Positions 36,748-54,400 of a stretch of 64,000 nucleotides of DNA are shown in pieces. Each line of letters starts with the position of its first letter. Position 1 is the stretch's first letter. Source of the DNA: an uncultured Chloroflexia bacterium (GTDB lineage: Bacteria; Chloroflexota; Limnocylindria; Limnocylindrales; CSP1-4). The notes under the pieces were generated by a model. The model worked only from the letters and a program-made list of their open reading frames with translations. It was not told the DNA's origin and ran no database searches. The position numbers and the translations under genes were made by a program. The stretch covers positions 1,248,001-1,312,000 of the forward strand of contig CAVVJT010000007.1 in NCBI GenBank assembly GCA_963748625.1, written 5' to 3'.

Positions 36748-36846
36748 GGCCTGCATGAGCACCGAGTTCGCGCGACTAGCTGAGCGCCCTTCTGGGGCCA
36801 GTGGCGAGTCACCTAGCGAGCGCAGGAACAGCGCCGGCGGAGGGTC

Positions 36847-38067: not shown

Positions 38068-38142
38068 CCAGCGGACGCCCCCGAAGGGTCGCTCGGTGTC
38101 TATCTTTGCCGCAATGCCACCTGCGTCATAGACTGAAGATAG

Positions 38143-39828
38143 ATGGCCCAGAAGCTACCGACTCCCGGAACTCTGACCGCCGCCCGACTTCGGCGGCTGA
38201 TCCGCGCGGGCGAGAACGACCTTGTCGAGTTCAAGGGCGAGCGCGCCTCCATCGCTGACATCGTCGATGCTGTCGTGTGCTTTGCGAACGGTGACGGCGG
38301 CCTCGTCCTCTGGGGCGTTGGCGACGACGGGGCGATCGAGGGCACCAACCTGCGCGATCCGCAGGCGCTCCGCAAGGGCGTGTTCAACGGGACGTCGCCG
38401 TCCCAGCTTGTGGAGGTCCAGGAACTCCTCGTCGATGCCAAGAAGGTCATCGGCGCCTGGGTCGAGCACTCGCCGGTCCTCGTGTCCACCACGAGAGGCT
38501 CGTACACGCAGCGCGTCGGTGCCGACTGTCTGCCGATGACGCCAGACCGGCTTGTGGTTCGCCAGATCGACACGCGTGCGCTGGATGTCTCGTCGGCCGT
38601 AACGCCTGTCGATCTGGACGGGATCGATCTTGTCGAGGTCGAGAGGTTTCGCCGGCTGCTGCCGTCGGACGAGGCCGGAGAAGGACTGCGCCGACTGGAG
38701 ATGCCGGCCCTGCTTGCCGCGATCGGGGCCACCGCGAAGGTTCGCGGCCGGACGGATGCCGTAACTGTTGCCGGACTCCTCATCTTCGGTCGCGAGGAGG
38801 AAATCCGAGCGGTCATCCCTCAGCACCAAGTGGTCTACGTTCGCTCGCCCGAGGGAACAACGGACTACGAGCGTCGCGTGGTTTCCTCCCAGCCGATCCT
38901 GCGGCTCCTCGAGCAGCTGAGTCTGGAGATTTCGGCCGCTGGCAAGTCCCGCACACTGCGCGTGGGTCCTCGCGACCTGGAACTCCCGGACTACCCAGAG
39001 CGGGTCCTGCGCGAAGCGATCATCAATGCAGTGGCGCACCGGCACTACACGCTTCCCGGCGACATCGTCATCCGCCAGACGTCCGTTTCGCTCGAGATCG
39101 AGAATCCCGGAGGCTTCCCGGAGGGTATTGACCCCGACAGCGTCATCCAGCACGCTCCCGTACATCGGAATCGCCTGCTCTGCGAGCTGCTGGATCGCGT
39201 CCGCGTCATGGAGCGCTCTGGCCTCGGCGTGGATCGCATCTTCGAGGATCAGCTCAAGTTCGGCAAGGTTCCTCCGACGTATGAAGCCGACCGCAACTCC
39301 GTCCGGCTGCGTCTTGATGCACGCGAGTTCGACGAGTCGTTCGCACGCATGGTGTTCAACGAGGAGCAGGCAGGAAGGCGATGGCGCGTCGAAGACCTCC
39401 TTGTCCTCTCGCACCTGCGGCGCATGGGACCATCAGATCGGGCGGTTCTCGCGAGGGTAATGCAGCGACCGGAGCGCGATGCGCAGGACATCCTCACGAG
39501 TTTGCTGGGCGAGCTTGTCGTCCGATTTGGCGCCGGGCCGGGCACCAAGTACGTGCTCAGCGCCCAAGCCCAGGCGAGCCTCGGCGCGGAGGGTGCGTAT
39601 ACGCGCGAGCGCGGGCTCGCGAAGGAGACGCAGCGGCGCCTAGTGCTTCAACATGCCATCGAGTTCGGCCGTGTGGACAACAAGGCGGTCAGGGAGATGC
39701 TCCAGATATCGGCCCGCGACGCGACGCAGCTCCTCCTCGCGCTCGAGGCACGCGGCCAGTTAGTGATGCGCGGAGCGAGGCGATGGGCCTACTACGAGCC
39801 CGTGGACCAGCAGACGCTTCCTCTATGA
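38143..39828 (+). CDS. Schlafen/AlbA_2 + HATPase_c_4 (RecG_C-like) + wHTH protein
   Basis: GENDLVEFK, CFANGDGGLVLWGVGDDG, YPERVLREAIINAVAHRHY, IENPGGF, MERSGLGVDRI. Confidence 0.92.
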   Translation: MAQKLPTPGTLTAARLRRLIRAGENDLVEFKGERASIADIVDAVVCFANGDGGLVLWGVGDDGAIEGTNLRDPQALRKGVFNGTSPSQLVEVQELLVDAKKVIGAWVEHSPVLVSTTRGSYTQRVGADCLPMTPDRLVVRQIDTRALDVSSAVTPVDLDGIDLVEVERFRRLLPSDEAGEGLRRLEMPALLAAIGATAKVRGRTDAVTVAGLLIFGREEEIRAVIPQHQVVYVRSPEGTTDYERRVVSSQPILRLLEQLSLEISAAGKSRTLRVGPRDLELPDYPERVLREAIINAVAHRHYTLPGDIVIRQTSVSLEIENPGGFPEGIDPDSVIQHAPVHRNRLLCELLDRVRVMERSGLGVDRIFEDQLKFGKVPPTYEADRNSVRLRLDAREFDESFARMVFNEEQAGRRWRVEDLLVLSHLRRMGPSDRAVLARVMQRPERDAQDILTSLLGELVVRFGAGPGTKYVLSAQAQASLGAEGAYTRERGLAKETQRRLVLQHAIEFGRVDNKAVREMLQISARDATQLLLALEARGQLVMRGARRWAYYEPVDQQTLPL

Positions 39829-40253
39829 CATGGCTCTAACTTGGCGCGACATAGACCGAAGATAGGCTCGAGTCGCGGTACGGCCGACACTCGAGGTACA
39901 GATCGCGGTCCGGGGAACTCGTATGCCAGGCGACGCGCCAAATTGGGGGATCCTGTGTATGGACCTCCTTGGTTCGATGTGGCACGATGCGGTCCGCTAG
40001 GGAGTCTGGCCATGGCTCTGAGCGCTGAGCCCCATCCCGGCGCACCAGGGGACACACATCGGATGTCCACGGAACATCGTCCGATCACAGCGACGACGCG
40101 GGTGTCGATCCTTCCGTTCGGCCGGAGTGAACTACGGATCACCGAGAGTCCGATGGCTCCCGTCAAGGACTCCCCCGAGATGATCCGCCGCCTCCCTGAG
40201 GTGACGTTGAAGACACATTTGGTGCGGCCGGCCGTGCGGGCAATCCGACAGGG

Positions 40254-41438
40254 CTAGATTCCGGACCAGCCCTCGACGGCAGACCAGCCCTGACTATTGA
40301 CGCGCCCCACGATGCCGCTCGTTGGCGCTTGTTTTCGGATCTCCTCGTTCACGAGACCCGGGATTGCCTGCTGAGCCTGGCCTAGTAGCGCCTGAAGAAT
40401 CTCGCCAGTCTGAGCCGGGATCGACGCTGGGTCCAGTCCGGGCGGGAGGTTCAAGCTCAGCTGCAGATTGAGATTCAGCGACGGCATGGACCGGGTTCGC
40501 GAGACAGTCATCTGCCCACCGATCCTGTGTGCCATGTTGACGGACTCGATTGCCCCAAGGATCACGTCGGCCCTCGCCTCATCGCCGTCCCCGAGAAGGG
40601 CCAGAGGGTCGAGCGGCTCGCGAGTAGAACACAGCTCCTCGTAAGCCTCCAGCAGCGACCAGACAATTGTCTCGGTCTCGTCGTCGGGCCGAACGATCTT
40701 CAGGCCGATCGCCTCGGCCTCACGGCGGCCGATTGCGTGCCCGTGCTGATAGGTCTTCTCCGCAAGCATCTCGATCACGGATGCAATCGTCTGCTCTTCA
40801 AGCCGCTCGCCCTCGGCGCGCGACGTGAGGAGTTTCCTGGCGACATCTCGGATATGCGAGTGCGCGCGATTGATCTGACCGAGGATCACCGGGTCGACGC
40901 GCTGGGCAAGGGCTGCGAATGGAGCGGCGAGGGCCGCCTGGTCCGAGAGGCCGACACGCTCCCGGATCAATCGGAGGTAGGACATGATGTCCTCTACCGC
41001 GACCTGATCCTGGACTGGCGTCTCGCCTTCCCGGCCACGTTGAATGCCGAGTTGCGGATCGATTGGGCCAAGTTCGCCCTTCGGCCCCATGACTATCTCG
41101 TCAGCCCCGATAGCGATCATGGTCGCTGCGCTCATCGCTTTGTACGGCACGATCACCGAGAACCTCTTCGCGTACTCTCGGATCATGGTGACCATCCGCC
41201 ACGGGACGTCCGTGAGTCCGCCGGTGGAGTACAGGAAGAGGTCAACCGCCTCGCACTGGCCCACGGTGCGCAGGTGGTCGTACAGCGGACGGACGGCGTC
41301 CTCGGCGACCTGCGCCTGCGCGCCCTGCCGGTCACTGAGCACGTAGGTGACGACGTGACTGCCCCGACGCGCCCCAAGTTCCCGCAGCAGACGGCGACGA
41401 TTCGCGGCCCCTGCATCGACCGGTACCAAAGCCCGCAT
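40254..41438 (-). CDS. SDH-family ClpP-fold serine protease (S49-like)
   Basis: VDLFLYSTGG, VPYKAMSAATMIAIGADEIVMG..LGPIDPQ, HGHAIGRREA. Confidence 0.88.
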   Translation of the reverse strand: MRALVPVDAGAANRRRLLRELGARRGSHVVTYVLSDRQGAQAQVAEDAVRPLYDHLRTVGQCEAVDLFLYSTGGLTDVPWRMVTMIREYAKRFSVIVPYKAMSAATMIAIGADEIVMGPKGELGPIDPQLGIQRGREGETPVQDQVAVEDIMSYLRLIRERVGLSDQAALAAPFAALAQRVDPVILGQINRAHSHIRDVARKLLTSRAEGERLEEQTIASVIEMLAEKTYQHGHAIGRREAEAIGLKIVRPDDETETIVWSLLEAYEELCSTREPLDPLALLGDGDEARADVILGAIESVNMAHRIGGQMTVSRTRSMPSLNLNLQLSLNLPPGLDPASIPAQTGEILQALLGQAQQAIPGLVNEEIRKQAPTSGIVGRVNSQGWSAVEGWSGI

Positions 41439-41567
41439 ATCCCCACCTACTAACACTGAGTGACCGTCAGGTCGCGGATCACCACGACCCGCAGCTCGCT
41501 CAGTCTCACCCACGATGATGGCATACGTAGGCGAGCCTTATCCGCAAGGAAACGTACACAATTCATC

Positions 41568-41596
41568 TTGACGGACGTCCACAGTCGGCGCAGATT
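41568..41596 (+). promoter_or_regulatory. Sigma70-type promoter of the Phd/T4SS/Tad operon (probably leaderless)
   Basis: TTGACG-N17-CAGATT, ATG 6 nt downstream, no SD. Confidence 0.55.
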
Positions 41597-41602
41597 CCCG
41601 GC

Positions 41603-41908
41603 ATGCAGAACGTGATTGGCATCCGGACTCTTCGGCGGGGCGTCAACGAGGCGCTCCTGCGCGTGGTGCGTGGCGAGACGATCGTCCTCGTGCGGCACGG
41701 GCGCCCGGTCGCCATCCTCCGGCCGCTCGCCGAGGGTGAGACCCACCGGCGCATCTCCGTGACCACCTTCCGCCGCAACCTGCGCCGCGCGGTCATCGTG
41801 TCCCACCGCCGACCCCTCATGCTCACCTGGTACGGCGACGGGGCCGCGGTGCTCGCACCGGTCCCGCGCGACCTTGAACTCGAGTACGAAGAGGACGACC
41901 TCCTGTGA
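41603..41908 (+). CDS. Tandem double Phd/YefM-domain protein 1
   Basis: IGIRTLRRGVNEALLRVVRGETIVLVRHGRPVAILRP and ISVTTFRRNLRRAV..PLMLTWYGDGAAVLAP. Confidence 0.8.
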   Translation: MQNVIGIRTLRRGVNEALLRVVRGETIVLVRHGRPVAILRPLAEGETHRRISVTTFRRNLRRAVIVSHRRPLMLTWYGDGAAVLAPVPRDLELEYEEDDLL

Positions 41909-42504
41909 CAGCCGGCGGAATGATCCAGGCGCTGGGGATGCGCGAGGTCCGCGCGAACATCCGCGCGGTGGTGGCACGCGTGGAGGCGGGCGAGGCGCTC
42001 GTCGTCCTGCGCGACGGCCAGCCGACCGCGGTGATGCTCGCGTTCGACGAGGCGCAGCGCTGGCAGCAGATCGAGCGCGGCCTCGCCGCCCTCCACGGCC
42101 TGGAGCTGTACCCGGAGCTCGCGCGGGACACCGCAGAGCTCGCCCGCCTGGTGCGCCGCGAGGTGCGGCCGAAGGCAGCCGACGTGCGCCGCCTGGCCGA
42201 GCTGCCGCGGGACATCCTGGCGCCGCTGCGGACGATGGGCGTCACGGATGCGCGGACGGGCTTCGCCGGGATGCTCGACGAGATCACGGCCGGGCGGACC
42301 ATGACGATCGTCTCGGGCGGCCGCTTTGCGGTGACCCTCGTGGCGCCGCGCGAGTTTGACCGCCTGCGCGCGCTCGACCGCACGGTCGGCTGGTTCCGCT
42401 CCGCCGGCCTGGACCTCGCCACTGCCGACGACCAGGCTGTGAGCGCGTTCGTACACGACTTCGCCGCGCGACCCGCGGCATCCGACATCGCGGCCGCCGG
42501 GTAG
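41905..42504 (+). CDS. Tandem double Phd/YefM-domain protein 2
   Basis: LGMREVRANIRAVVARVEAGEALVVLRDGQPTAVML and MGVTDARTGFAGMLDEITAGRTMTIVSGGRFAVTLV. Confidence 0.8.
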   Translation: MTAGGMIQALGMREVRANIRAVVARVEAGEALVVLRDGQPTAVMLAFDEAQRWQQIERGLAALHGLELYPELARDTAELARLVRREVRPKAADVRRLAELPRDILAPLRTMGVTDARTGFAGMLDEITAGRTMTIVSGGRFAVTLVAPREFDRLRALDRTVGWFRSAGLDLATADDQAVSAFVHDFAARPAASDIAAAG

Positions 42505-42512
42505 GGCTGGCC

Positions 42513-42911
42513 ATGCAACGGGGGACCCGCACCATGCCGCATCTGCCGCGCATTCCACGGACACTCGCGATCCTCGGCGCCGTGGGACTGCTCTGGCTCG
42601 TCGGGGCCTCGCCGAGCCTCGCCGCCTCGGTGCCGGCCGGCGCCCGGGAGGCGCTCGCGCCGGTGACCAAGATGATCGCGACGCTGGTGGCGATCGCCAT
42701 CGGCCTCGGGATCGCGGTCTGCGGGGCGGTGATCGTGTGGGGCGGGATCGAGAAGACGCTCGCAGGCGCGAACCAGGACGCGGAGCACCGCGCGGCGAGA
42801 CGGATCCAGAACGGAATCCACGGCCTCGTCTGGATGATCCTGGCGTCCGTGATCGTGACGACGATCACCGCGATCGCCGTCGCCTACGGGCTCATCGACA
42901 AGCCCTTCTGA
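42513..42911 (+). CDS. VirB2/TrbC-like pilin
   Basis: Signal peptide (..SPSLA) then two hydrophobic helices joined by a short basic loop (GGIEKTLAGANQDAEHRAARRIQNGIHGL). Confidence 0.65.
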   Translation: MQRGTRTMPHLPRIPRTLAILGAVGLLWLVGASPSLAASVPAGAREALAPVTKMIATLVAIAIGLGIAVCGAVIVWGGIEKTLAGANQDAEHRAARRIQNGIHGLVWMILASVIVTTITAIAVAYGLIDKPF

Positions 42912-42923
42912 CCCACCAGACCC

Positions 42924-44057
42924 ATGCTGACGACCGGGGGCCTGGTTCCCCCTACCCTCCGAACTCCCGAATCGGGCGCGCGCACCCCCTGGCGTCTCCC
43001 GCGTGCGGGCCTCGCGCTCGTCCTGCTGACGCTCCTGGGCCTCGGGCTCGCCCTCGTGGCCGAGGCGACCCCGGCGCACCCCGACACCTCGCCATCGCCA
43101 GCCGCGCCGTCGATCTCGGGGCCGCCGGTCGGGGACATCCCGATCCTGGGCGACCCGATCCGCGACCTCACGGTCTGGTACTCGGACCGGGTGCGGGACG
43201 CGAACCGCGCCGCGCTCGACAACCTTCGAGGCCAGCTGCTCACGCCGGTCGACCCCCTCACCGACAGCGTCACGCGCGCCCTGTACGGGCCGATGGTGCT
43301 GATCACGATCCCGATCCTCACCTTCGGCGGCCTGATCCTCGGCTACCTGATCATGGTCAGCAGCACCTCGGGCGCCACCGCCTACGAGGCCCGCTCGGTC
43401 GCGCCGCGCTTCGTCGTCGGGGCGGCGCTCGCGATCCTGGGCATCTTCCTTGTCTCGGTGATCACGGCGTTCGTTGCGGCCCTGGATGAAGCGATGGTGC
43501 GCGTGGCGCTGCCGGCCTCGGCGGTCGGCGGGCCCGCGGGCTGGCCGTCCACTGGCGGCGTGTTCGCCGTGCTCCAGCAGGGCGGCTTCGACCCCCGCGT
43601 GCCCCAGGGCCCTGACAACTGGAACAGCGGGGCGTGGATCTCTGCGGGCCTGCTCGCGGGCGTCCTGACCACCTGCCTCGCGATGCTCAACTGGTTCCTG
43701 ACGGGCCTCGAGAAGCTCCTCGTGATCGTGGGGCCGCTGTGCCTCGCGGCGTACGCGATCCCGGCGACCGAGCGCGTGACCAGGCTCTGGTTCAAGGTCC
43801 TGCTCGTCGTGCTTGCCATGCGCTTCGCCTGGGCGATCACGTTCGTCGTGTTCAGCCTGACGGCAGCGCCGTACGTCGGCCCGTCGGGGGCGCCCGCGAC
43901 GGTGCAGGACATGAACATCCTGCTCGGCCTGGCTGCGGGAGCCGCCGCGATGATGCTCGGCCTCCCGCTGGTCCTGATCCCGCTCGCGCTCGCTGGCCCC
44001 CAGATCCTGGACAAGGAGAACGTGGTGCGCCTCGTCCGCGTGCTGCCGTACATCTGA
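42924..44057 (+). CDS. VirB6/TrbL-like polytopic membrane protein
   Basis: About 7 TM helices; LLVIVGPLCLAAYAIPATERVTRLWFKVLL resembles the VirB6 core; lies between the pilin and PrgI genes. Confidence 0.7.
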   Translation: MLTTGGLVPPTLRTPESGARTPWRLPRAGLALVLLTLLGLGLALVAEATPAHPDTSPSPAAPSISGPPVGDIPILGDPIRDLTVWYSDRVRDANRAALDNLRGQLLTPVDPLTDSVTRALYGPMVLITIPILTFGGLILGYLIMVSSTSGATAYEARSVAPRFVVGAALAILGIFLVSVITAFVAALDEAMVRVALPASAVGGPAGWPSTGGVFAVLQQGGFDPRVPQGPDNWNSGAWISAGLLAGVLTTCLAMLNWFLTGLEKLLVIVGPLCLAAYAIPATERVTRLWFKVLLVVLAMRFAWAITFVVFSLTAAPYVGPSGAPATVQDMNILLGLAAGAAAMMLGLPLVLIPLALAGPQILDKENVVRLVRVLPYI

Positions 44058-45490
44058 TGGGCAAGCTCGTCGACGTGCCCGAGAACGCGGTCCGCGAGGA
44101 GCCGCTCGCATTCGGCCTGACGGCACCGCAGCTGCTGGTGTGCGGGATCGCCGTGGGGATCGGCGCCGTCATCCAGCTGATCCCTGTCTGGGTCGCGCTC
44201 CAGGTCGTGCTCACGGTGCTGCTCGCGGGCCCGGTCCTGCTGTCGGCCATCCTCCCGGTCCGGGGCGAGCCCGCCTACCGCTGGCTCATCCGCTGGATCC
44301 GGTACCTGAGGGGTCCACGGACCCTCGAGATGAGCGCCAGCAACGTCCCATATAAGCCGGAGATAAGTGGCGAGGTCCAGGATCGGACTGTCGCGGTCGA
44401 TGCCGCGGTGGACGGGGATCGGGCGATCGACCCGATTGCCGCCCTGGAGGGCCGGGGGGACCCTCCCGCCATCGTCACGGATCTGCCGGGGGAGGCGCAG
44501 ACGCCGATGGGGGAGCGTGCCGTGCGGCTCAAGGTCGTCGAGGCCGACGACCGGGAGCCCGAGGTGGAGGAACGGGAGGTCGCGGGGGACCCGCTCGACC
44601 GCCCGTGGGTCGTGCCGCATGCCCTGCCGACCATGCGCGTGGTCGCGGTCGCGGGGTTCGCGGGTGGCACCGGCCGGACGACGCTCGCGGCCGAGATCGC
44701 GACGCTCGTCGCCTCGGGCGCCCGCATCCGCGGGCTCGATGGCGTGGACATGGCCGTGCGCGTCCTCGTACTCGATGCGGCGCGGCTCGCGGGTGCTGTC
44801 GGCCTCCGCCTGGGACTCGCGCCTGCCGCGCTCGCGCGCGCCCGCGGCCACCGCCTGTGGCGCGATCCGGGTGCCATCGCCGACCTCGCGGTGGCGACGC
44901 GCTGGGGTGCCGACGTCCTGACCCTGCCGCCGCACCCGGAGTTGGGCGAGCACGACGGCGCGGGCGGCGACGCGGCTCTCGGGCTGTTCGGCGCGGCCGA
45001 GGCGGGCGAGCTCGTCGAGGGGGCGCAGCGCGCGGGGTACCACCTGCTCGTCGTCGACCTCGGGAGTCTCCTCGAGGAGGGGCACCGCGAGTTCATCGAC
45101 CAGGCGGACCTGGTCCTGGGCGTCGTGCGCCCGACGCTCGAATCCCTGCCGGACGTCTTCCGTCTGGCCACGGTCACGCGCGCCCAGGGCATGGGCCGCA
45201 AGCTCACGCTCGTCGCGAGCGGCGCCGACGACGACACCGAGATCCGCAGGCTCGCGCGCGAGGCAGACGTCCCGGTCACGGGCTGCATCCGGCCCGATCC
45301 CCTGTTCACGACGGCCGCGGACCGGGGTGAGCCCGCGTGGGTGACCGCCCCGCACCTGCGGGCCGACCTCGTGCGGGTGGCGCGCGCCGCCTGGCCGCTC
45401 CTCGCGGATACGGAGCCGCAGTCCTCCCGCCGGCGCTCCGTGCTCGGCGTCGTCCGCGCCACGATCCCCACCCCTGGAGGCACCCGATGA
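44057..45490 (+). CDS. PrgI/VirB3-like domain fused to a CpaE/TadZ (MinD-like) ATPase domain
   Basis: MGKLVDVPENAVREEPLAFGLTAPQL + 2 TM + GEPAYRWL..YLRGPR; acidic linker; VVAVAGFAGGTGRTTLA, VLVLDA, LLVVDLG. Confidence 0.75.
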   Translation: MGKLVDVPENAVREEPLAFGLTAPQLLVCGIAVGIGAVIQLIPVWVALQVVLTVLLAGPVLLSAILPVRGEPAYRWLIRWIRYLRGPRTLEMSASNVPYKPEISGEVQDRTVAVDAAVDGDRAIDPIAALEGRGDPPAIVTDLPGEAQTPMGERAVRLKVVEADDREPEVEEREVAGDPLDRPWVVPHALPTMRVVAVAGFAGGTGRTTLAAEIATLVASGARIRGLDGVDMAVRVLVLDAARLAGAVGLRLGLAPAALARARGHRLWRDPGAIADLAVATRWGADVLTLPPHPELGEHDGAGGDAALGLFGAAEAGELVEGAQRAGYHLLVVDLGSLLEEGHREFIDQADLVLGVVRPTLESLPDVFRLATVTRAQGMGRKLTLVASGADDDTEIRRLAREADVPVTGCIRPDPLFTTAADRGEPAWVTAPHLRADLVRVARAAWPLLADTEPQSSRRRSVLGVVRATIPTPGGTR

Positions 45491-46791
45491 CGATGGGCGT
45501 CCGTACCGGCTTCGATGGCGCGCCGATTCCCGCCGCGACACTCGGGACCGTCCGCCGCCAGCTCGTGGCGCGCCTGTCGCCCGAGGACCTCAACCCGTTC
45601 GGGCGCACGCCGGAGCAGGAGTCGAGGCTCCGTCGCACGATCGGCGACATCCTCGCCGAACCCGAGCTCGAACTTGCGCCGACCCCCGCACTCGTCGCCG
45701 CGGTCGAGGCAGCCGTGTGCGGCCTGGGTCCCCTGCAGCCGCTCGTCGACGACCCGCTGGTCGGCGACATCCTCGTCAACGGGCCGAATGAGATCTTCGT
45801 CGAGCGCTCGGGCCGCCTCGAGCAGACGCCGGTGACGCTCGGCTCCGCGCGCGAGGTCGTCGAGATCTCCGAGCGCATCGCCGCGCTCGCCGGGCGCGAG
45901 CTCTCGGTGGCGCACCCGGTCGTGGACGCCCGGATGCCGGACGGGTCACGCGTGAACGCGGTCATCCCGCCGGTGGGCGGGCCCTACCTCTCGATCCGCA
46001 AGTTCAACCGCCTCCGCCTCGACCTGTACCCGGGCGGAAGGCACGGGCGCAGCTGGATCGAGGAGGGCGGGCTCGACGCCGCGATGGCGGACGTCGTCAC
46101 CCGCCTCGTGCGTGCGCGCGCGAACATCCTTGTCGCAGGCGAGACGGGCGCCGGCAAGACGACCTTCCTGCGCACGGTCACGGACCTGTTCGACCAGACG
46201 GAGCGGATCGGCGTCGTCGAGGACACAGCCGAGCTCGCGCTCGAGAACCCCGACCGGTTCTGCCTCGAGACGCTGCATCCGCACGACCTCGCGGTCGGCG
46301 AGGCGGACACCCGGCTGCTCGACGTCGGCGACCTCGTGGCGAACGCCCTCCGGATGCGCCCGGACCGCCTGATCGTGGGCGAGATCCGGCTGCCGAAGGA
46401 GGCGTTCTACACGCTCCAGGCGCTCCACACGGGGCACGACGGATCGGCCACGACCATCCACGCGAGCAGCGCCGAGGACGCGCTCTTCCGCCTCGAGCTG
46501 CTCGCCCGCCAGACCATGCGGGACCTCACGGTGACCGACCTGCGCGGCTACATCGCGCGCGTGTTCGACCTGGTCGTCGTGCTGCGCCGTCTCCGCTCGG
46601 GGCGCCGCATCGTCCGCCAGCTCACCGCGGTGGACGGCCTGACCGAGGCCGGCGGGTACCGGATGACCGACGTGTTCCGGGCTGAGGCGGTCCCAGGCTC
46701 GGACGAGATCCGGTTCACCGCCGCAGCTGCGTGGACGCCGTCGCCGCGCCTCCTCGCGCGCCTCGAGCTGGAGGGCGACCAGTGGAGCTGA
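45487..46791 (+). CDS. cpaF: Flp pilus assembly ATPase CpaF/TadA
   Basis: GLGPLQPLVDDP..DILVNGP, DARMPDGSRVNA, GETGAGKTT, EDTAEL, LRMRPDRLIVGEIR, TGHDG..TIHA. Confidence 0.93.
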   Translation: MTMGVRTGFDGAPIPAATLGTVRRQLVARLSPEDLNPFGRTPEQESRLRRTIGDILAEPELELAPTPALVAAVEAAVCGLGPLQPLVDDPLVGDILVNGPNEIFVERSGRLEQTPVTLGSAREVVEISERIAALAGRELSVAHPVVDARMPDGSRVNAVIPPVGGPYLSIRKFNRLRLDLYPGGRHGRSWIEEGGLDAAMADVVTRLVRARANILVAGETGAGKTTFLRTVTDLFDQTERIGVVEDTAELALENPDRFCLETLHPHDLAVGEADTRLLDVGDLVANALRMRPDRLIVGEIRLPKEAFYTLQALHTGHDGSATTIHASSAEDALFRLELLARQTMRDLTVTDLRGYIARVFDLVVVLRRLRSGRRIVRQLTAVDGLTEAGGYRMTDVFRAEAVPGSDEIRFTAAAAWTPSPRLLARLELEGDQWS

Positions 46792-47657
46792 TCGGCGCGC
46801 TCGCCGCCGGAGTCGCCGTCATGGCGCTGATCCTCGCGCTCGCGCCCGCCCGGGTGCAGCCGGCGTCGTCGCTGCGGACCAGAGTCCGGGTCCTCCAGGC
46901 GGAGCGGGTGGGCAAGGCGCGTTCGCTCCTCGAGCAGGCACGCCTCGACGTGGCTCCGCGCACGTACCTCGCGCTCGAGATCGCCTCGCCGCTGGTGCTC
47001 GCGTGGCTCGGGCTGCTCATGTCCGTGCCGATGGCGGTCCTCGGGCTCATCGTGGGCGCCCTCGTGCCGCGCTGGTACGTGCGGTACCTCGTGTCATCGG
47101 AGGCGCGGGCGGCGGCCGACGACGCTCCCCGGGTGCTGCGTGCCATGGTCAACCGCGCGGCCTCGGGCGGCACCTACCCGGACCTCTACGCCGCGGCTGC
47201 CGAGGCGGCGCGCCACCGCTGGGTGAAGGCCGACTTCGAGGAGATCCTCTCGCGCTACTACGCCGCCGAGGCCCCGGCGGACGCGCTCGTCGAGGTTCGC
47301 CGCCGGCAGGCGGGCCGGAACCTCGCGCTCGTGTACGACGCGCTCATCACGCTCGCGCGCACGCACCAGCCCGTGTCGGCCGCCGCGCAGGTGCTGGGCT
47401 CGCTGGGCGACGCGGCGCGGGCCAACGCCTCGATCGCGAAGGCGGCGGTCGCCGAGAGCAAGGGCCTCCGGCTCCAGGCGACGATCCTCGCGATCGTCAT
47501 CCCGGGCATGTTCCTGTACCTGCTCCTCGCGAACGGCGAGCTCATCGCCCCGGTCCTCGGCACGCCGCTCGGGCGGTACGTGCTGCTGCCCGCCGCCGCA
47601 CTTCTCGAGGTCACCGGCATCGCGCTCTCGTGGCGCATCACGCGGCTGGAGGCCTAG
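46782..47657 (+). CDS. tadB: TadB-like (T2SSF) membrane platform protein
   Basis: TM topology and position directly after cpaF; C-terminal PVLGTPLGRYVL. Confidence 0.7.
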   Translation: MELIGALAAGVAVMALILALAPARVQPASSLRTRVRVLQAERVGKARSLLEQARLDVAPRTYLALEIASPLVLAWLGLLMSVPMAVLGLIVGALVPRWYVRYLVSSEARAAADDAPRVLRAMVNRAASGGTYPDLYAAAAEAARHRWVKADFEEILSRYYAAEAPADALVEVRRRQAGRNLALVYDALITLARTHQPVSAAAQVLGSLGDAARANASIAKAAVAESKGLRLQATILAIVIPGMFLYLLLANGELIAPVLGTPLGRYVLLPAAALLEVTGIALSWRITRLEA

Positions 47658-47659
47658 GG

Positions 47660-48565
47660 ATGGAGCTGGTCGGCACGATCGCGGTCGCGATCGCCGTGTT
47701 CTCGCTATGCGTGGCAGTGCTGGGCTCGTCCCTGCTCGTCCCGCGCCGGCTCGACGCGATCCGCGCGGTCGCGATCCCCCGCCACCAGTACGAGCGCCTG
47801 GTCAGCGCGGAGGTGCCGCTCTGGGAGCGCATCGTCGCGCCGGTCGCGGTCCGCCTCGCCGCCCGGGCCCCGGCCTTCGCCTCGCAGGTGAGCGAGCGCG
47901 ACCTCATCCGCGCGGGCTTCGACCCCGCGGTCATCACGCCGGCCGAGGTGTACGCGGCCAAGCTCGTGCTCGCCGCAGGGATCCTTGCCGTGGGTGCCGC
48001 GCTGAGCCCGCTGGTGCCCGTCGCCCTGCTGGTCGCGCTGCCGGTCGCCTTCGTCGGGTACCTGTTCCCGACCGAGTACCTCGCGTCGCGCGGCAAGGCG
48101 CGCACGGCCCAGCTCGCGCGGGAGCTGCCCGACTTCCTCGCCCTCGTGCGACCACTCGCGGCGAAGCACGGCCTCGAGCACGCCGTCGCCGATGTGGCGG
48201 ACGCGCTGCACGACGCGTCGGGCGGGCAGAACCTGCTTGCGCGCCAGATCCGGAGTGCCGTCGCCGCCTATGGCACGGGCACCGACCTCTTCGGGGCGCT
48301 CCGCGACATCGCGATGGCGGCAGAGCTCGAGGAGCTCGACGAGCTCGCGGCAGCCCTGTCCCAGTCCCGCCGCCTCGGCAAGGGCATCAACGAGACCCTC
48401 GCCGAGCACGAGCGATCCCTCCGCGATACCGAGCGCAACCGGCTTGCCGGTGCCGCCTCGTCGGTTCAGCCGAAGCTCGCGGCGATCCTCGCCGGGATCT
48501 ACCTGCCCGAGTTCGTGCTGCTTGTCGTCGCTCCCCTGTTCATCTCGACCCTGGGTCGAATCTAG
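47660..48565 (+). CDS. tadC: TadC-like (T2SSF) membrane platform protein
   Basis: DLIRAG, RELPDFLAL, ALSQSRRLGKGINETL, IYLPEFVLLVVAP. Confidence 0.8.
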   Translation: MELVGTIAVAIAVFSLCVAVLGSSLLVPRRLDAIRAVAIPRHQYERLVSAEVPLWERIVAPVAVRLAARAPAFASQVSERDLIRAGFDPAVITPAEVYAAKLVLAAGILAVGAALSPLVPVALLVALPVAFVGYLFPTEYLASRGKARTAQLARELPDFLALVRPLAAKHGLEHAVADVADALHDASGGQNLLARQIRSAVAAYGTGTDLFGALRDIAMAAELEELDELAAALSQSRRLGKGINETLAEHERSLRDTERNRLAGAASSVQPKLAAILAGIYLPEFVLLVVAPLFISTLGRI

Positions 48566-48582
48566 CCACGAGGAGGTGGACC

Positions 48583-48783
48583 ATGACCATCAAGCACCCC
48601 CGAGCCCGGAGGGCCTCGCGAACGTTGGCGGCCGTGCTGCGCGACGAGCGCGGCGTGACGACCCTCGAGTACATCATCGCCGCGGCGATCGTCCTCGTCG
48701 TGCTCAGTGCCGCGATCCTCGCCTGGAACAACGGGCTCGCCGACAAGATCGGCGATCTCATCCGCCTGCTGGCCGGCACGTGA
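48583..48783 (+). CDS. flp: Flp family pilin
   Basis: SD aggagg; RDERG|VTTLEYIIAAAIVL class III cleavage site with E+5/Y+6. Confidence 0.9.
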   Translation: MTIKHPRARRASRTLAAVLRDERGVTTLEYIIAAAIVLVVLSAAILAWNNGLADKIGDLIRLLAGT

Positions 48784-49202
48784 GCGGGCCACTGGCGGCC
48801 GCTGCCCGGCGGCGGCGGCGCGGTGAGGCCGGGTCGACCGTCGTGGAGGCGGTGCTCGTCGTGCCGCTCGTCCTTGTCCCGGTGCTCGCGGCGACCGTGA
48901 TCCTCGGGCATCTCGCCCACACCCGGATCGTGCTCGACGCGGCCGCTGCCGCCGGTGCCCGCCAGGCCGCGGTCATCGGCGCCGATGGGCCGTCGGTCCG
49001 GAGCCGCATCCGGGCCGAGCTTGCGGACGGCGGGCTCGACCCGGGCACGGTCGGGGTCTCGGTGACGCCGGCCTCGGCGGGCTGGGGACAGCCGATCCGG
49101 GTGCGGCTGACGGCCACGAGCAGGGCAGCCGTCCCGTTCCTGGGCACCTGGACGCTGCCGCTCGCGGCGGAGTTCGTGACCCGCAGCGAGGTGACCCACT
49201 GA
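48780..49202 (+). CDS. tadE: TadE-like minor pilin
   Basis: RGEAG|STVVEAVLVVPL..AAAAGARQAA. Confidence 0.85.
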   Translation: MSGPLAAAARRRRRGEAGSTVVEAVLVVPLVLVPVLAATVILGHLAHTRIVLDAAAAAGARQAAVIGADGPSVRSRIRAELADGGLDPGTVGVSVTPASAGWGQPIRVRLTATSRAAVPFLGTWTLPLAAEFVTRSEVTH

Positions 49203-49697
49203 TGGCCTGGTCACGGGACGGGGAGCGCGGGCAGGTCGCGGTGTACGCCGTGCTGCTGTTCCCCACGCTGATGCTCGTCGTCGCATTCGTGCTCGCGATC
49301 GGCAGCGTCGAGATGCTGCGCTCGCGCCTGCGTGCGCAGCTGGACATGGCGGCGCTCACGGCCACCCAGGCGATCGATCTCGGCGCACTCGCGAGCGGCG
49401 GACGCCCCGTCCTCGTCCGCGACAAGGCCGACGGGCTCGCCCGCCAGTACCTCGCGGTCAACGTGGCGGTGCTCGGCGACCAGCTGCTCGTCACGCCGGA
49501 GGCCGTCGCCGGTGCCGCGCAGGTCGCGGTGACGAACCGGGTGGGCACCGTCGACCCGATCACGGGGCTGCCGGTGACCGCCCCGACCGTGAGCATCCGC
49601 GTGGTCGTCCCGGTCGACCGTGCCGGTGCTGGCCGTCGCGGGCCTCCGGACCAGGGTGGACCTCGAGCTCACGGGCTCGGCCGCCGCGAGGAGCTGA
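49202..49697 (+). CDS. TadG/TadE-like minor pilin, frameshift near 49615
   Basis: DGERG|QVAVYAVLLFP..RLRAQLDMAALTATQ. Confidence 0.75.
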
Positions 49698-49701
49698 CGC
49701 C

Positions 49702-50265
49702 ATGCCGACCCAGCCACGCCTGTCCCTCCCGGTCCTCGCCGGCGCCGCCATCGCCATCGGCCTGCTCGTCGTCGGCGGGATCCTGCTCCTCGGCCAGCTC
49801 GGCACCCCGGGTGCCAAACCCACCCCGTCGTCTCCGGTCGCGTTGACGGCCTCGCCCGCGGCCACCCCGTCCGACCCTGGATCGACACCCGAAGCCGCGG
49901 TCGGCGCGTTCTTCACCAGGCCTTCGCCGACGCCCGCCGCACCGGGGATCCGGCGCCGATCGAGGCCCTCACCACGGGGCCCGAAGTCGTCGGCCTACCT
50001 CACCGTCGCGGGCTTCCTCGAGGGCCAGACGGCCGCAGAGAAGGCGTCGATCGTGACCGTCCAGGAGTTCGGGGACCTCACGACTACGATCGAGGGCAGC
50101 ACCGCGATCGTCGTCTTCGACCTCACCGAGGGCGGCTACGACATCAGGCTCGCGGACGCCTCGCCGCTCGAGTCGCCGCAGGTCCTGCCCCCGAGCAGGG
50201 TCACCGTGCAGCTCGTCCAGGCCGATGGCCGATGGCTGGTCGACGCGTTCGAGGCGGCGCGGTGA
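49702..50265 (+). CDS. Membrane-anchored protein with NTF2-like extracellular domain (local frameshifts)
   Basis: N-terminal TM, Pro/Ser/Thr linker, PEAAV..FF, C-terminal VTVQLVQADGRWLV. Confidence 0.55.
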   Translation: MPTQPRLSLPVLAGAAIAIGLLVVGGILLLGQLGTPGAKPTPSSPVALTASPAATPSDPGSTPEAAVGAFFTRPSPTPAAPGIRRRSRPSPRGPKSSAYLTVAGFLEGQTAAEKASIVTVQEFGDLTTTIEGSTAIVVFDLTEGGYDIRLADASPLESPQVLPPSRVTVQLVQADGRWLVDAFEAAR

Positions 50266-51472
50266 AGCGCCTCGGGGATCGCTGTCGTCCTGGGCGCGGT
50301 CCTCGCGATCGCGCTCGCCGGAAACGCGTCAGCCTTCGACTCCGGTGTTGCGCGTCACCGTCGACACGTGGGAGGCGGGTGGCGGCCGGGCCTACGTGGG
50401 CGTCCAGGCGCAGGGCCGCTGGGCACGCCCGGGCACGCGGTCGTGCATCGCGCTACTACTCGGTCTGGGACCATCGGGCGACGATCCTCACGGATCCCGT
50501 GCGAGACCAGTGGTCGGTCAAGGTCCATCACGTGCACGGGCAGCACCGTCAATCCACTGAGCCCGACGATGGTGCTCACGAGCCGGACCACGCCCGGGAT
50601 CGGCGTCCGCCCGTCAACGTCGGGCGTGCTGAGCCTCGACCTCGGCGTCGCGGTCGATCCCGGAGACCGCGCCCGCCGGCAGGACCCGCACGATCACGGC
50701 CGCGCTCACCAGCGGCTGGCTCGGCGCCGTCGGGAACCACATCCGCGCGTCCGATCGTGCCCGGGTCGGTGCGGATCCGGCGCTGGACCGTGGACTTCGG
50801 CGACGGCACGACCAGCACGATCGCCCCGTCATCGACGAGCCCGCAACCACCTCTCGACCACGCACGCGTACGGCGCGGGCACGTTCACGGTCACGGTCAC
50901 CGCGCGGGTCACCGGGTCGCGCCTACGCCGCGTTCTTCGCCCCCAATGGCACGCCGTACGAGTCCACCGTCGGGATGGAGCCTCGACATCACCAACGCGG
51001 CCTCGGGTGTGTCGGGCCTGCCGGTCGAGTACGTCACCCCGGTCGCGACGGCGGCGGCGAGCCCGTCAGGGACCCTGCCCGACGGCACCACCGCCGCGGC
51101 CGACCCCGACGGACTCACCGAGATCTGGTGGCCGCGCGGGCTGCCGTGCGACCTGTTCGTGCGCGCGGTCATCGAGCGCGAGGGGTTCATGCGCTCGGGC
51201 GGCGTGGTCATCGGCGCAGGGCCGGACGCGCCTCGTCCGGTACCGCTACATCCGGGGCACCAACGACGCCCCGGACGCGACGCGCACCGGGCACGTACCG
51301 GGCCGCCGCGCCGATCCGGATCCAGTGGAACACGCCGCTGCCCGGGACCAGGTCCTACCCGGTCCGCCTCGAGCTCATCCTCGAGACCACCTACGACGAC
51401 GGCACCGTCCGGACCACCCGCGTGGCGGGCGAGGTCTCGGTGACCGTCGTCTACTCCGCGGCTGCCCAGTAA
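50262..51472 (+). CDS. Secreted beta-rich PKD-like protein (possible adhesin), multiply frameshifted
   Basis: Pieces across frames: signal-like N-terminus, WTVDFGDGTT, THAYGAGTFTVTVTARVTG, YPVRLELILETTYDDG. Confidence 0.6.
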
Positions 51473-51479
51473 GGAGGGG

Positions 51480-52183
51480 ATGCCCATGCGTGTCCGCCGG
51501 ACCGTCTACCTCGCCATCTTCGTCATCGCGAGCCTCGTCGCCGCCGGGCGCCTACTGGCTCGCCCAGCCCCGGACCGAGGTCGTCCGCGCCACCGTCGAC
51601 ATCCCCGTGCTCGACCCAGGTCACGGCCGACATGGTCGAGCTCGTGCGGGTCAGCCCGCTCGGGGTGCCGCCGAACGCCGCTCGGTCGCTCGATGCCGTC
51701 GTCGGGCAGCACGCCTCGCTGCCGATCCTCGCGGGGCAGGATGTCGACACCCGGGCGCTCGAGGCCATCCCGGGCTCGCAGGCGTTCGGGTTCGGGGCGC
51801 CGCTGGCACCGGGCGAGGTGGCATTCGCGCTCCCGGTGACCGCCGAGCAGGCGGTCGGCGGTGCGCTGACGGCCGGCTCCCACGTGGACGTGATCGCGGT
51901 GCCGAACGACGTCAGGCAGGCGGGCGTGACATCAACGGGGGATGCCCCGTCCACCGTCGCCCTCGGCCAGGGCCTGACGATCCTCGCCCTGCGGACGGAC
52001 GACGGCCGGGACCTCGCCGCGGGCGACCCGGAGGACACGACGAGCACGATCCCGCCGAAGCTCGCCTCCGTGGTCGTCGCGATCCCGGCGGCACGCCTGA
52101 CGGAGTTCGCGACCGCCGCGATGACCTCGACGTTCTACTTGGGACTGGAGACGGTGCCGCCACCGGTGGCGACGGTGCCCTGA
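51480..52183 (+). CDS. cpaB: CpaB/RcpC (SAF domain) pilus assembly protein, frameshifted
   Basis: N-terminal TM, EVVRATVDIP, LDAVVGQHA..PILAGQ, VAFALPV..AVGGALTAGSHVDVI. Confidence 0.8.
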
Positions 52184-52225
52184 GGCGATCTCGTCGTCAA
52201 GTGGGCCGACGTACCCAACCGGTGC

Positions 52226-53243
52226 TCAGGGTCGATCCGGAACGCCGACCGCCGATAAGCGGAAGTCGAGTTCGTCAAGGTCGCGAACAGCGCGAGCGAG
52301 CGACGCCCGGGCGAAGAACGGAATGTCGTGCGGCACGCGCCCGTGTGCGGCATCCACGATGACGTAGACAACCTCGAGGGCCCCGGGAGCGGGCTTCGCA
52401 CTGGCATCGATCACCGCCCCGAGATACGGAGCGTCCGCCTGGACCAGGTCCCGGAACCGCTCGCGGACCTTCACCTCGTGGCGCAAGCCCTCAGCCGAGG
52501 TCACACCCTGCGTGAACAGGTACGAGAGCTCCTGGGAGCCGATGCCCCGCTTGACATGGATCAGCTTGTCCGGCGCCACGAAGACATCACAGAGCTCGAA
52601 GCGGCCGCGCTCTGTCCCCACCTGGGCCAGCTTCTTGTCGAGCAGCACACCGCCGAGCGCCGCGGCAAGGTCCGCGTTGTAGAGGTCCTCGGGCATCGCG
52701 ACCCGTGCGGGCGTGGGAATGGCCAGCGTCGGCGGCCGTACTCGCCGCGCCGCGGAGTCGACGCTTGCCAGGTACTCGCCGCTGACCTTGAACCAACGGC
52801 CCTCGGAGAGCACGTACGCGTCGTCGCCGTCCTGCAACTCCCAGACCAGCCAGCGGTAGATCGGCCAGCGGTCGAGCGCACGCATGGAGTTGCGGTCGAC
52901 CACACGCAGGTCGTCGGCCATGAGGTCGTCGAGAGTGGGGTCCGGACGGAGCAGCCGGTAGTCGTCGAGGCTCGCCTCCTCGCGCCGGATGGTGCTCGCC
53001 TCGCCGCCAAAGCGGAACGCGGCCACCGTCTCCCAGTCGAGGATCCCCGGCGGCGCGAAGTAGGCTCCGCCAGCATCGGGGTCCTGCAGCACCCGGACCA
53101 GCTGCGCGTCGAGCCGCCGCGCCAGCGGCGAGCCCTTGGGCTCGGCCTGGAGGCGCTCCAGCGTCGGGAACCCGTCGAGGAAGTCACGCCCGGCGTAGTC
53201 GGCCAGGAGCTGCCTTCCCAGGCGGTCAAGGTCACGCAGGTCA
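52226..53243 (-). CDS. DUF6119/TIGR04141-like protein, C-terminal part only (cut by the junction)
   Basis: YVLSEGRWFKV..YL, EDLYN, LLDKK, FELCDV, LIHVKR..SQELSYLFTQG, IPFFARASL. Confidence 0.8.
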
Positions 53244-54225
53244 TTGAACTTGATGGCGGTGCGCGGGTGCTGGTTGAGCAGGCCGGTGATCAGGTAGGGC
53301 AGGTCGAAGCCCCAGCCGAGTTTGGCGCGCATCGGCTCGATGTGGTTCTGGACGCAGCGCAGCACCGGGCGCAGCTGGTACTTCGGGTTGTGCAGAAAGC
53401 CGATGAGCAGTTCCATGGGGCAGTTGCCCGCGCCGCGGCCGAGGCCGGCCATGGTGGCGTCGACCATGTTCGCGCCCAGCACGATGGCCTCGATGGTGTT
53501 GGCGAAGGCGAGCTGCAGGTTGTTGTGCGCGTGGATGCCGACCTCCTTGCCGGCGGGCTTGCAGTAGCTGCAGGTATTTCTTGACCGAGGTAGCGGATCT
53601 GCTCGCTGTAGAAGCGCGCCGAAGCTGTCCACCAGGTAGATGGCCTTGGTCTCCGACTTCGCGAGCAGGGCCAGGGCCTCGTCCAGTTCGCGCTCTGGCA
53701 CCGTCGAGACGGCCATCAGGTTGACGGTGGTCTCGTAGCCCTTGTCGTGGGCGTCCTTGACCATGTCCAGCGCGATGCGGGATCTGGTGGATGTAGCAGG
53801 CCACGCGGATCAGGTCGACGACGCTCTCCTTCTTGGGCAGGATGTCCTCGCGGTAATCGCATCGTCTCGGCGTCGGCCATGACCGCCAGTCTTCAGGTCC
53901 GGTCGGGTTGTCGCCCACGATGCGGCGGATGTCGTCCTCGTGCGCAGTATTTCCAGGCGCCGTACTCGCCCGGCCGATGATGTCTCTTGCGGGAGGCCTT
54001 GTAGCCGATCTCCATGTAGTCGATGCCGGCGGCCACGCAGGCGTCGTAGACGGCCCTGACGATGCCGTCGTCGAACTGGTGGTTGTTCATCAGGCCGCCG
54101 TCGCGGATGGTGCAGTCCAGGACCTTGATTTCCGGCCGATACGAAATCCACCGGCTGGTGGCGGATTCCTTTTCCGGTGTCGCTTTCTTCGCCTTGGCGG
54201 CGGACTCGGGCTGGCGGTTGGGCAT
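53244..54225 (-). CDS. HMGL-like aldolase (DRE-TIM family), frameshifted and 3'-truncated at the junction
   Basis: VLDCTIRDGG, YMEIGYK, YLVDSFG, GIHAHNNLQLAFANT, GLGRGAGNCPME, LNQHPR. Confidence 0.88.
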
Positions 54226-54400
54226 GCCAGCTGCCTAAACCGAAACGAGGAACAATGCAATGCCGGATTGCGCCCCCGAGCTTCGCCAGCTCCATTTGCG
54301 AATAAACGGATCTGACCCCTCGGGCGGGACAACTCTTGCCGAAGGACGCCATGGGGGTGCAGGATGTGTCCTCGGAACGACGCATATCCACGCGCTTTTT

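Follow-up and report, generated by a model that had tools for sequence, protein, structure and literature searches.

We analysed a 64-kb stretch of Chloroflexota DNA (~70% GC; contig C7, positions 1248001-1312000; hereafter the window) from an assembly of 4.63 Mb in 10 contigs that is rated 98.3% complete and 7.74% contaminated. At 41603-52183 the window carries a cassette of 14 genes, g1 to g14, all on the + strand. It is probably the front module of a two-module transfer system in which a Tad pilus module has been built into a type IV secretion system (T4SS) that is conjugative and of the monoderm type. The gene order is Phd, Phd, VirB2-like pilin, VirB6/TrbL-like protein, PrgI(VirB3)::CpaE fusion, CpaF, TadB, TadC, Flp, TadE, TadG-like protein, NTF2-like anchored protein, PKD-like protein and CpaB, and between neighbours there is either a gap of no more than 17 nt or an overlap of 1-10 nt. 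The genes were recovered by frame analysis based on GC at third codon positions (GC3) and on codon-position GC, together with inspection of start codons, which returned the same set of co-directional genes with the same bounds as an earlier, sequence-only reading of this DNA. Family labels were assigned with Pfam and NCBIfam, in several cases with scores no better than the curated cut-off; with homologues and fold searches taken into account, all 14 family identifications made in that reading hold. The single promoter which it had placed in front of the genes was not recovered, as a scan of 41000-53000 for promoters and terminators gave no promoter-like site of the sigma-70 type. The only terminator-like site in this interval falls inside g4, and neither result of the scan is better than that for shuffled sequence.

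The cassette opens with two genes of the Phd/YefM fold. The small protein encoded by g1 (41603-41908) scores 26.9 bits against PF02604, below the cut-off of 29.8; g1 is the conserved first gene of the cassette, was found in 35 related loci and is likely a regulator. The start of g2 (41905-42504) overlaps the stop of g1 by 4 nt, and its product contains double Phd/YefM-like domains (PF02604, 56.2 bits in two stretches). The next gene, g3 (42513-42911), encodes a VirB2-like T4SS pilin with 27.4 bits against PF18895 (T4SS_pilin; cut-off 26.6). In the alignment of its homologues a signal peptide precedes two hydrophobic helices with a charged loop between them, and T4SS_pilin is matched by all 27 aligned homologues, seven of which additionally match TrbC/VirB2. 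For g4 (42924-44057) the assignment as a polytopic VirB6/TrbL-like membrane protein comes from its homologues, the ESM Atlas and Foldseek, the window protein itself giving no Pfam match. TrbL/VirB6 (PF04610) is matched by 8 of 25 g4 homologues with a best E-value of 2.3e-4. A protein language-model look-up in the ESM Atlas placed only clusters of the TrbL clan among the nearest named ones (scores 0.92-0.87), which we treat as a lead only. When the structural model of g4 (pLDDT, the predicted local distance difference test score, of 60) was submitted to Foldseek, the nine best matches in the PDB were R388 TrwI/VirB6 chains, with E-values of 4e-3 and worse and template modelling (TM) scores of 0.3-0.4. 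PDB sequence searches with alignment profiles of g4 and of g12, described below, returned nothing below E 0.2.

The fifth gene, g5 (44057-45490), encodes a fusion of a PrgI/VirB3-like membrane domain to a CpaE/TadZ-type ParA ATPase. Residues 7-88 of its 477 amino acids match PrgI (PF12666; 27.7 bits, cut-off 27), and residues 196-425 form a ParA/CbiA domain (PF01656); against TIGR03815 the protein scores 26.8 bits, far under the cut-off. Its Walker A motif reads GGTGRTT, with R instead of the usual K. Full-length fusion proteins make up 185 protein clusters at E<=1e-3, down to ~43% identity, and a precomputed PrgI match (PF12666) is present on 50 of the best 120 of these. The N-terminal 90 residues are the best-conserved stretch of the fusion, which forms its own family. 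A second PrgI match in the genome (C4:35991) was discarded as a membrane thioredoxin/AhpC-type protein that does not belong to a T4SS. The sequence-only reading had staked its proposal on the open reading frames (ORFs) beginning at 42513, 42924 and 44057 matching profiles of the VirB2, VirB6 and PrgI types; all three do so, at or near threshold in the window proteins and consistently across homologues. Since the homologues match the same families, the doubt concerning these three T4SS-type genes is mostly removed.

The Tad part of the cassette begins with the CpaF/TadA secretion ATPase g6 (45487-46791; T2SSE, PF00437, 142 bits), which is ~40% identical to plasmid-borne CpaF proteins and scores 230 bits against TIGR03819, under its cut-off of 373. 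Two more T2SSE-family ATPases are encoded in the genome (G000:C8:121385-122218 and C7:516105-516941; 220 and 215 bits), both 37-38% identical to g6; the Tad motor of the element is therefore a third, divergent copy. Two platform proteins follow: TadB-like g7 (46782-47657; T2SSF, PF00482, 19.4 bits, below cut-off), whose identity in related loci is 59-87% save for 41% in L052 and 52% in L031, and TadC-like g8 (47660-48565; PF00482, 26.6 bits, cut-off 25.2). The Flp-type pilin g9 (48583-48783; PF04964, 21.5 bits, below the cut-off of 32.2) has an AGGAGG upstream of its start and a class III signal peptide (ERG/VTTLEY), its translation reading G/VTTLEY; the processing motif of Flp pilins is G/XXXXEY. 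It is followed by the TadE-like minor pilin g10 (48780-49202; PF07811, 35.9 bits) and the TadG/TadF-like minor pilin g11 (49202-49697; Tad, PF13400, 19.5 bits, below cut-off). The last gene, g14 (51480-52183), encodes CpaB/RcpC (PF16976, 43.3 bits). An AAGGAGG and the ATG at 51480 open its membrane anchor, with the SAF/RcpC body lying downstream, and its intact homologue in L015 reaches 67.4 bits against TIGR03177, under the cut-off of 71 bits. Among the components by which Tad systems are recognised, the cassette contains a TadA/CpaF ATPase with TadB and TadC, Flp and TadE/F-type pilins, and a TadZ/CpaE ParA-type ATPase.

Two further genes are interspersed among these. The product of g12 (49702-50265) is a membrane-anchored NTF2-like protein, as judged by AlphaFold and Foldseek on the intact L015 homologue. 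In the model of this homologue (pLDDT 85) a linker connects a membrane helix to an NTF2-like domain. With Foldseek there were 73 PDB matches at E<=1e-3, the best ~30 of which have an NTF2-like or cystatin-like fold; VirB8, TcpC and TraM are missing from the best 50. The modelled g12 protein would share the architecture of VirB8/TcpC, and this is a resemblance only. For g13 (50232-51472), a three-frame reading against homologues gives a secreted protein of ~400 amino acids with a weak PKD-like signal, which was seen only in homologues (L059, E 1e-3; L015, E 0.037; both below cut-off).

The arrangement is conserved well beyond the window. A scan of one genome per species yielded 46 loci that encode the PrgI::CpaE fusion, several genomes carrying 2-4 of them. 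The record titles name Chloroflexota, Chloroflexi, Chloroflexia, Limnocylindria or Anaerolineaceae for 45 of the 46, and an Acidimicrobiia metagenome-assembled genome (MAG) for the remaining one. Each of the 46 is colinear with the window, and the order of the cassette is therefore beyond chance. Fourteen of 14 genes are present in 25 loci, 20 loci are cut by the end of the locus, and one (L027) stops after TadC. L027 is the sole related locus where the cassette ends inside the Tad block, and the block is followed there by an ORF of 511 amino acids (L027:14358-15893, - strand). Two loci, L020 and L026, have ~770 extra bases between the PKD-like gene and CpaB, room for one more gene.

The components that complete a conjugative system lie further downstream in the relatives. 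Of 24 loci with at least 2.5 kb of sequence after CpaB, 15 have CpaB followed directly by VirB4 and then a cell-wall hydrolase with SLT and Peptidase_M23 domains, all on the same strand. The VirB4-family ATPase has 735 amino acids and matches P-loop_TraG (PF19044, 51.6 bits) and AAA_10 (PF12846, 34.6 bits); it scores 181 bits, below cut-off, against the NCBIfam family 'VirB4-like, CD1110 family'. In all four downstream stretches that were annotated by Pfam or tblastn, a coupling-protein-like ATPase (733-806 amino acids) comes next. Three of the four continue with a Replic_Relax protein of ~300 amino acids, the two that were scanned scoring 59.3 and 45.4 bits against PF13814; the fourth does not extend that far. 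The nine loci without an adjacent VirB4 were at one point considered truncated elements ending at CpaB. This explanation was dropped, as the module turned up further along the same contig, downstream of CpaB, on the same strand and behind unrelated genes, in all three genomes checked, at 14.4 kb in that of L007, at 10.8 kb in that of L015 and at 5.7 kb in that of L023 (the remaining six loci are L009, L014, L034, L036, L037 and L047). The L007 genome belongs to the genus of the window, and L015 is the closest relative of the window. In a tree of CpaF, TadB and TadC, the state of VirB4, adjacent or non-adjacent, switches at least four times. Because the distance to VirB4 varies and its state changes so often on the tree, the gap after CpaB acts as a cargo slot between two modules. 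Among the 25 complete loci, variable cargo occurs only after CpaB and never within the block; a large serine recombinase directly follows CpaB in L009 and L034. The 10.8-kb gap in the L015 genome is mostly one open frame of 2626 amino acids (L063:1173-9053, + strand), the first 753 of which gave no Pfam match. One genome (G778, with the four fusion loci L009, L030, L041 and L044) has at least five full-length VirB4-like genes on different contigs, a high copy number for one MAG.

These comparisons bear directly on the sequence-only reading. One outcome by which it would have been refuted, that no other genome keeps T4SS and Tad genes together, is not what the relatives show, as these genes stand together in all the related loci and in more distant Chloroflexota families. 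Its suggestion that VirB4, coupling protein and relaxase lie further downstream is borne out in the relatives, either directly after CpaB or some kilobases on, and fails in the window genome. It had also described the Tad locus as taking the place of VirB4; the relatives show instead that the Tad genes are inserted between PrgI and VirB4.

The fusion was found in 18 of 401 sampled genomes of the class, in 12 of 65 genera and in 2 of 14 genomes of the window's genus, a patchy distribution among close relatives as in mobile elements. In several genomes there are 2-6 copies. Among 401 genomes sampled across the phylum, nine matching genomes lie outside the class, and these match the ParA part only. 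Three loci from two other Chloroflexota families have the order CpaE-like, CpaF, TadB, TadC, Flp, TadE, (TadG, PKD-like), CpaB, VirB4, and in the two of these distant loci that were scanned the CpaE-like protein carries a weak N-terminal PrgI match, which stays below cut-off (19.3 and 17.8 bits). The fusion persists in loci with an ATPase domain of only ~28% identity. A tblastn search of 72,556 plasmids with the fusion protein gave no match. The best plasmid relative of the element's VirB4 is encoded on an Embleya plasmid, at 35% identity.

Taken together, we regard it as probable that in the cassette and its relatives a Tad pilus module has become part of a conjugative T4SS of the monoderm type, with the interval 41603-52183 as the front one of two modules. 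The two-module system is patchily found in one Chloroflexota class, the records of the relatives being titled Chloroflexia, Chloroflexota or Limnocylindria. The ancestral operon would have consisted of the 14-gene front module, a variable cargo slot of 0-14 kb and then VirB4, the SLT+M23 hydrolase, the coupling-protein-like ATPase and Replic_Relax. A conjugation channel genetically coupled to a Flp pilus, one of the two options of the sequence-only reading, is supported by the conserved order and the fusion; from the observed gene content, order, fusion and conservation we infer a physical and functional link between pilus and channel.

CpaF, TadB and TadC assemble Flp pili after cleavage of the pilins by a prepilin peptidase, and TadZ/CpaE localises the machine. 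In conjugative systems, VirB3 binds VirB4 at the membrane, VirB6 is part of the channel, and relaxase and coupling protein deliver the DNA. In the mechanism that we propose, a host prepilin peptidase would mature Flp, TadE and TadG, and CpaF with TadB and TadC would build, and possibly retract, a Flp pilus that finds and holds recipients. Through the fusion protein, the pilus motor with its TadZ-like scaffold would be anchored to the VirB3/VirB4/VirB6 channel. As the fusion would link pilus motor and channel in this proposal, the pilus and the DNA channel would be assembled at one site, and relaxase-bound DNA would leave through the T4SS. The genes of the operon overlap at their start and stop codons. 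When the PrgI domain was modelled in a complex with the L022 VirB4, the score was 0.54, the best of three controls reaching 0.00, which lends weak support; in the benchmark of this procedure the pass rate was 58 of 80 for solved complexes and 2 of 110 for mismatched pairs, and passes at or below 0.60 comprised 7 of the 80 and both mismatches. The prediction runs agree in at least 91% of contacts, with a partner pLDDT of at least 73. Because a solved VirB3-VirB4 complex exists, this pass may only reflect likeness to it.

Several known systems share parts of this organisation. Elements of mating-pair-formation type FATA (MPF_FATA), such as pCF10 with PrgF-PrgH-PrgI-PrgJ-PrgK and CTn2, have the same order of a small membrane or pilin-like protein, a VirB6-like protein, a VirB3-like protein (PrgI), VirB4 and a VirB1-like hydrolase, and in addition have a coupling protein and a relaxase (PMC4027160). 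The Chloroflexota elements differ from these in having a full Tad set between PrgI and VirB4 and PrgI fused to a TadZ/CpaE-type ATPase; they also carry a clear VirB2-type pilin and a relaxase of the Replic_Relax family, and their hosts are Chloroflexota. A 2025 paper describes Gram-positive T4SS classes as lacking virB2 homologues (PMC12102498). With the Tad/Flp systems of type IVc (Caulobacter Cpa, Aggregatibacter Tad, actinobacterial Tad) the cassette has in common a CpaE/TadZ-like protein, CpaF/TadA, TadB, TadC, Flp, TadE, a TadG/F-like protein and CpaB. In contrast to them, the window locus has no prepilin peptidase and no secretin was found in the window genome, the N-terminal domain of TadZ is replaced by a VirB3-like membrane domain, and the locus is embedded in the T4SS operon of a patchily distributed element.

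A type IV filament of a conjugative element helps, or is needed for, mating in the IncI plasmid R64 (thin pilus) and the PAPI-1 island, and two reviews term such combinations of T4SS and type IV pilus 'hybrid assemblies' (PMC12857230, PMC12102498). Those systems occur in diderm hosts and have type IVb pili encoded in separate clusters with no fusion, whereas here the pilus is of type IVc (Tad), its genes are interleaved with those of the T4SS and one of them is fused. The main text of PMC12857230 does not contain the word 'Tad'. The Sulfolobales Ced system and Ups pili likewise combine VirB2-like, VirB6-like and VirB4/HerA-like parts with a type IV pilus (PMC12102498); weak matches to the CedB and CedD families of NCBIfam score 18-44 bits, far below cut-off. 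Ced differs in being archaeal, in importing rather than exporting DNA, in its separate loci and in having no relaxase.

A further comparison is with the plasmid NZ_CP108778.1 of Embleya sp. NBC_00896, which has a homologous backbone (VirB4 35%, coupling protein 29%, N-terminus of the hydrolase 45% identical). It encodes TrbL_4, PrgI (64.6 bits), VirB4, a type IV coupling protein (T4CP), Replic_Relax and the hydrolase and, ~8 kb on and on the same strand, a SAF/CpaB-like protein, CpaF, TadB, TadC and TadE. Here, the Tad genes form a separate downstream block, and PrgI is not fused to a ParA-type domain. Since this plasmid carries both gene sets separately, the linkage of T4SS backbone and Tad is wider than its interleaved, fused form. 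Linear plasmids of Cutibacterium acnes also have conjugation genes beside a tad locus, which is a separate block upstream of them, and the report on these plasmids leaves a functional link open (PMC5696575).

A number of points weigh against a Tad-equipped conjugative system. No VirB4 was found in the window genome by PF12846, by tblastn with the L022 VirB4 or by a VirB4 profile that matched 5 of 5 other genomes, and this genome likewise gave neither a PF13814 match nor a tblastn match to the relatives' coupling protein, relaxase or recombinases. Most T4SS assignments in the window are at or below curated cut-offs, and the VirB6 fold match of g4 depends on a model with a pLDDT of 60. In 7 of 16 aligned members, that of the window among them, the CpaE domain has R in the place of the Walker A lysine. 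Furthermore, the coupling-protein call is weak, consisting of near-threshold matches to TrwB_AAD_bind (23.2 and 18 bits), DUF87 and FtsK together with CedD-like matches, the protein being 29% identical to the annotated T4CP of Embleya. A prepilin peptidase (TadV/CpaA) is absent from the cassette and from the related loci examined; the lone Peptidase_A24 match (PF01478) in the window genome lies on another contig (C10:924750, 28.5 bits). As Tad and T4SS gene sets are apart in the Embleya plasmid, the former could have started as cargo and entered the operon at a later time. Finally, for every member of the family pilus and DNA transfer alike are predictions.

The state of the window copy itself has to be considered separately. 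Its first ten genes, g1 to g10, align to relatives in one frame each. At 49.6-51.6 kb there are ~16 frame breaks, with none in the preceding 8 kb, and nearly all are single-base insertions relative to L015. One break falls in g11, two compensating ones in g12, ~eleven in g13 and two in g14. The break in g11 lies near 49618; its homologues have 163 amino acids, their last 25 residues match the window in the other frame, and the ORF end at 49846 is a wrong-frame read-through. In g12 the breaks near 49916 and 49983 garble ~24 residues. The ~11 single-base insertions in g13 emerged from the three-frame reading against the L015, L007, L009 and L022 homologues, and the two +1 breaks in g14 (~51544 and ~51609) are located between membrane anchor and SAF/RcpC body. 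The ORFs that the sequence-only reading had given for g11, g13 and g14 are artefacts of these breaks.

Homology with relatives of the genus ends at 52183. Beyond this point there is no DNA match in 20 genus genomes, while window positions 1-20000 match all 20. The following ORF (52226-53764, - strand) is a join of gene debris in which a DUF6119 fragment is fused in frame to an HMGL-like fragment, both of them truncated. PF00682 covers residues 1-126 (profile positions 118-241 of 260, an internal HMGL-like fragment) and PF19614 residues 174-504 (profile positions 186-519 of 524, the C-terminal two thirds of DUF6119). The ORF marks both the end of homology and the start of a low-GC region, which extends from ~52-53 kb to the end of the contig (~35 kb, C7:1300001-1335169) with a GC content of 0.63-0.65 compared to 0.71 for the genome. 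The tetranucleotide distance of this tail is in the top 1-2% of the 10-kb chunks of the genome, and the only Omp85-family match of the genome is located there (C7:1332572-1332919). A tail protein (54260-56194) has only domain-level relatives, 37-48% identical, in 201 genomes of the class, by which the foreignness of the tail is not settled. Either a chimeric join or the acquisition of a large block would account for the tail.

As assembled, the window copy cannot transfer itself: the genome lacks the back module, the reading frames of four genes are broken and the contig turns foreign-looking at ~52-53 kb. The window also has no match to PF00589 or PF00239 (integrase, resolvase) and no tRNA; with VirB4, relaxase and a matching recombinase missing from the genome, the integrative element proposed by the sequence-only reading is unsupported for this copy. 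We consider it somewhat probable that assembly artefacts explain both the frame breaks and the lack of a back module in this copy, i.e. that a poorly polished consensus was joined to the contig of another organism and that the real element is complete. As the breaks are one-directional and clustered, we lean to such a chimeric, badly polished contig end over a decayed remnant. The loss of genus matches past 52183, the composition of the tail with its Omp85 match and the rated contamination of the assembly point in the same direction. In contigs of two further studies that share ~92% identity with the window, the extra base is missing at 12 listed places; these contigs come from relatives, not from the same strain, and therefore neither prove nor disprove the inserted bases, and a sequencing-run search for the window returned small shares only (0.10, 0.06, 0.00). 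On the other side, no other contig of the assembly carries VirB4, coupling protein or relaxase, and acquired low-GC DNA beside a decaying element would look alike.

For the family as a whole, the best surviving alternative, though an unlikely one, is that the Tad genes are an adhesion or colonisation module for the benefit of the host with no role in DNA transfer, and that their place in the T4SS operon is a fixed insertion accident, like the tad loci of many plasmids. CpaF family genes are indeed common on plasmids of all mobility classes (622 records, 290 of them non-mobilizable), Embleya keeps its Tad locus as a separate block downstream of the T4SS, and the functional link between Flp pili and conjugation is called unclear by the authors of the C. 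acnes plasmid study (PMC5696575). The loci described here are organised differently: PrgI and VirB4 flank the Tad block, in which start and stop codons overlap, the TadZ-like gene is fused to the VirB3-like gene and has stayed so at ~28% identity of the ATPase domain, and in the 25 complete loci cargo enters after CpaB and never inside the block.

Quite improbable is a non-conjugative function of the front module as a self-sufficient Tad machine with VirB2-, VirB6- and VirB3-like membrane parts, for example in DNA uptake or as a novel filament, with VirB4 and relaxase as a separable neighbouring unit. Up to 14 kb of cargo may part the two modules, VirB4 adjacency changes repeatedly on the tree, and the window genome has the front module alone. 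However, wherever a non-adjacent locus was followed along its contig, the VirB4 module lay downstream on the same strand, and the sole candidate for a front module without VirB4 is the window genome, with its broken frames and suspect contig. The probability is negligible that the arrangement goes back to a single deletion join or to unrelated weak Pfam matches that happen to lie side by side, as the low scores of several window proteins might suggest. This explanation is refuted by the colinearity of the related loci, the T4SS_pilin matches of all pilin homologues, the full-length fusion in 185 clusters and the order kept in more distant families.

Within the favoured explanation of a Tad module built into a conjugative T4SS, a further step can be proposed only tentatively, and we hold it to be rather doubtful: the elements might define a new mating-pair-formation class with one envelope machine, in which VirB3::TadZ docks CpaF/TadB/TadC onto VirB4/VirB6, and a retractile Flp pilus takes hold of the recipient before the DNA channel at the same site takes over. 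If true, this would represent pilus-dependent conjugation in single-membrane bacteria, with looser relatives in Actinomycetota. Conjugation of single-membrane bacteria is usually described as pilus-free and reliant on surface adhesins. A conserved operon with the Tad kit between VirB3 and VirB4, a VirB3 fused to the Tad scaffold ATPase and a retained VirB2-like pilin offers a testable picture of partner finding and suggests that some single-membrane bacteria use a pilus when mating. That a T4SS acts with type IV pili (R64, PAPI-1) and that Tad loci stand beside conjugation genes on actinobacterial plasmids is already known. Neither a Tad set placed between PrgI and VirB4 nor a fusion of PrgI with CpaE/TadZ is described in the literature covered; the locus tables of PMC12102498 and CONJScan are outside this coverage and might list such loci. 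The fusion is a natural adaptor for asking how two filament or secretion machines join. Moreover, the Chloroflexota finding extends conjugative elements to a poorly studied phylum and connects the scattered reports of actinobacterial plasmids that have a Tad locus next to T4SS genes.

Upstream of the cassette, the window contains a defence-type island (26622-41513). It encodes an HTH_17 protein (26622-27674, - strand), the type I restriction methylase HsdM (30593-32527), the type I restriction protein HsdR (34108-36747; GC3 0.96), a protein with Schlafen/AlbA_2 and HATPase_c_4 domains (38143-39828) and an SDH-type ClpP-like protease (40254-41513, - strand). Cargo comparable to these genes is also found in several relatives. 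Restriction- or defence-type cargo in the form of a DUF1156-type methylase and a DUF499 protein, of ~900-1000 amino acids each, recurs upstream of the Phd genes in five loci (L022, at 1852-7514, L009, L010, L032 and L052).

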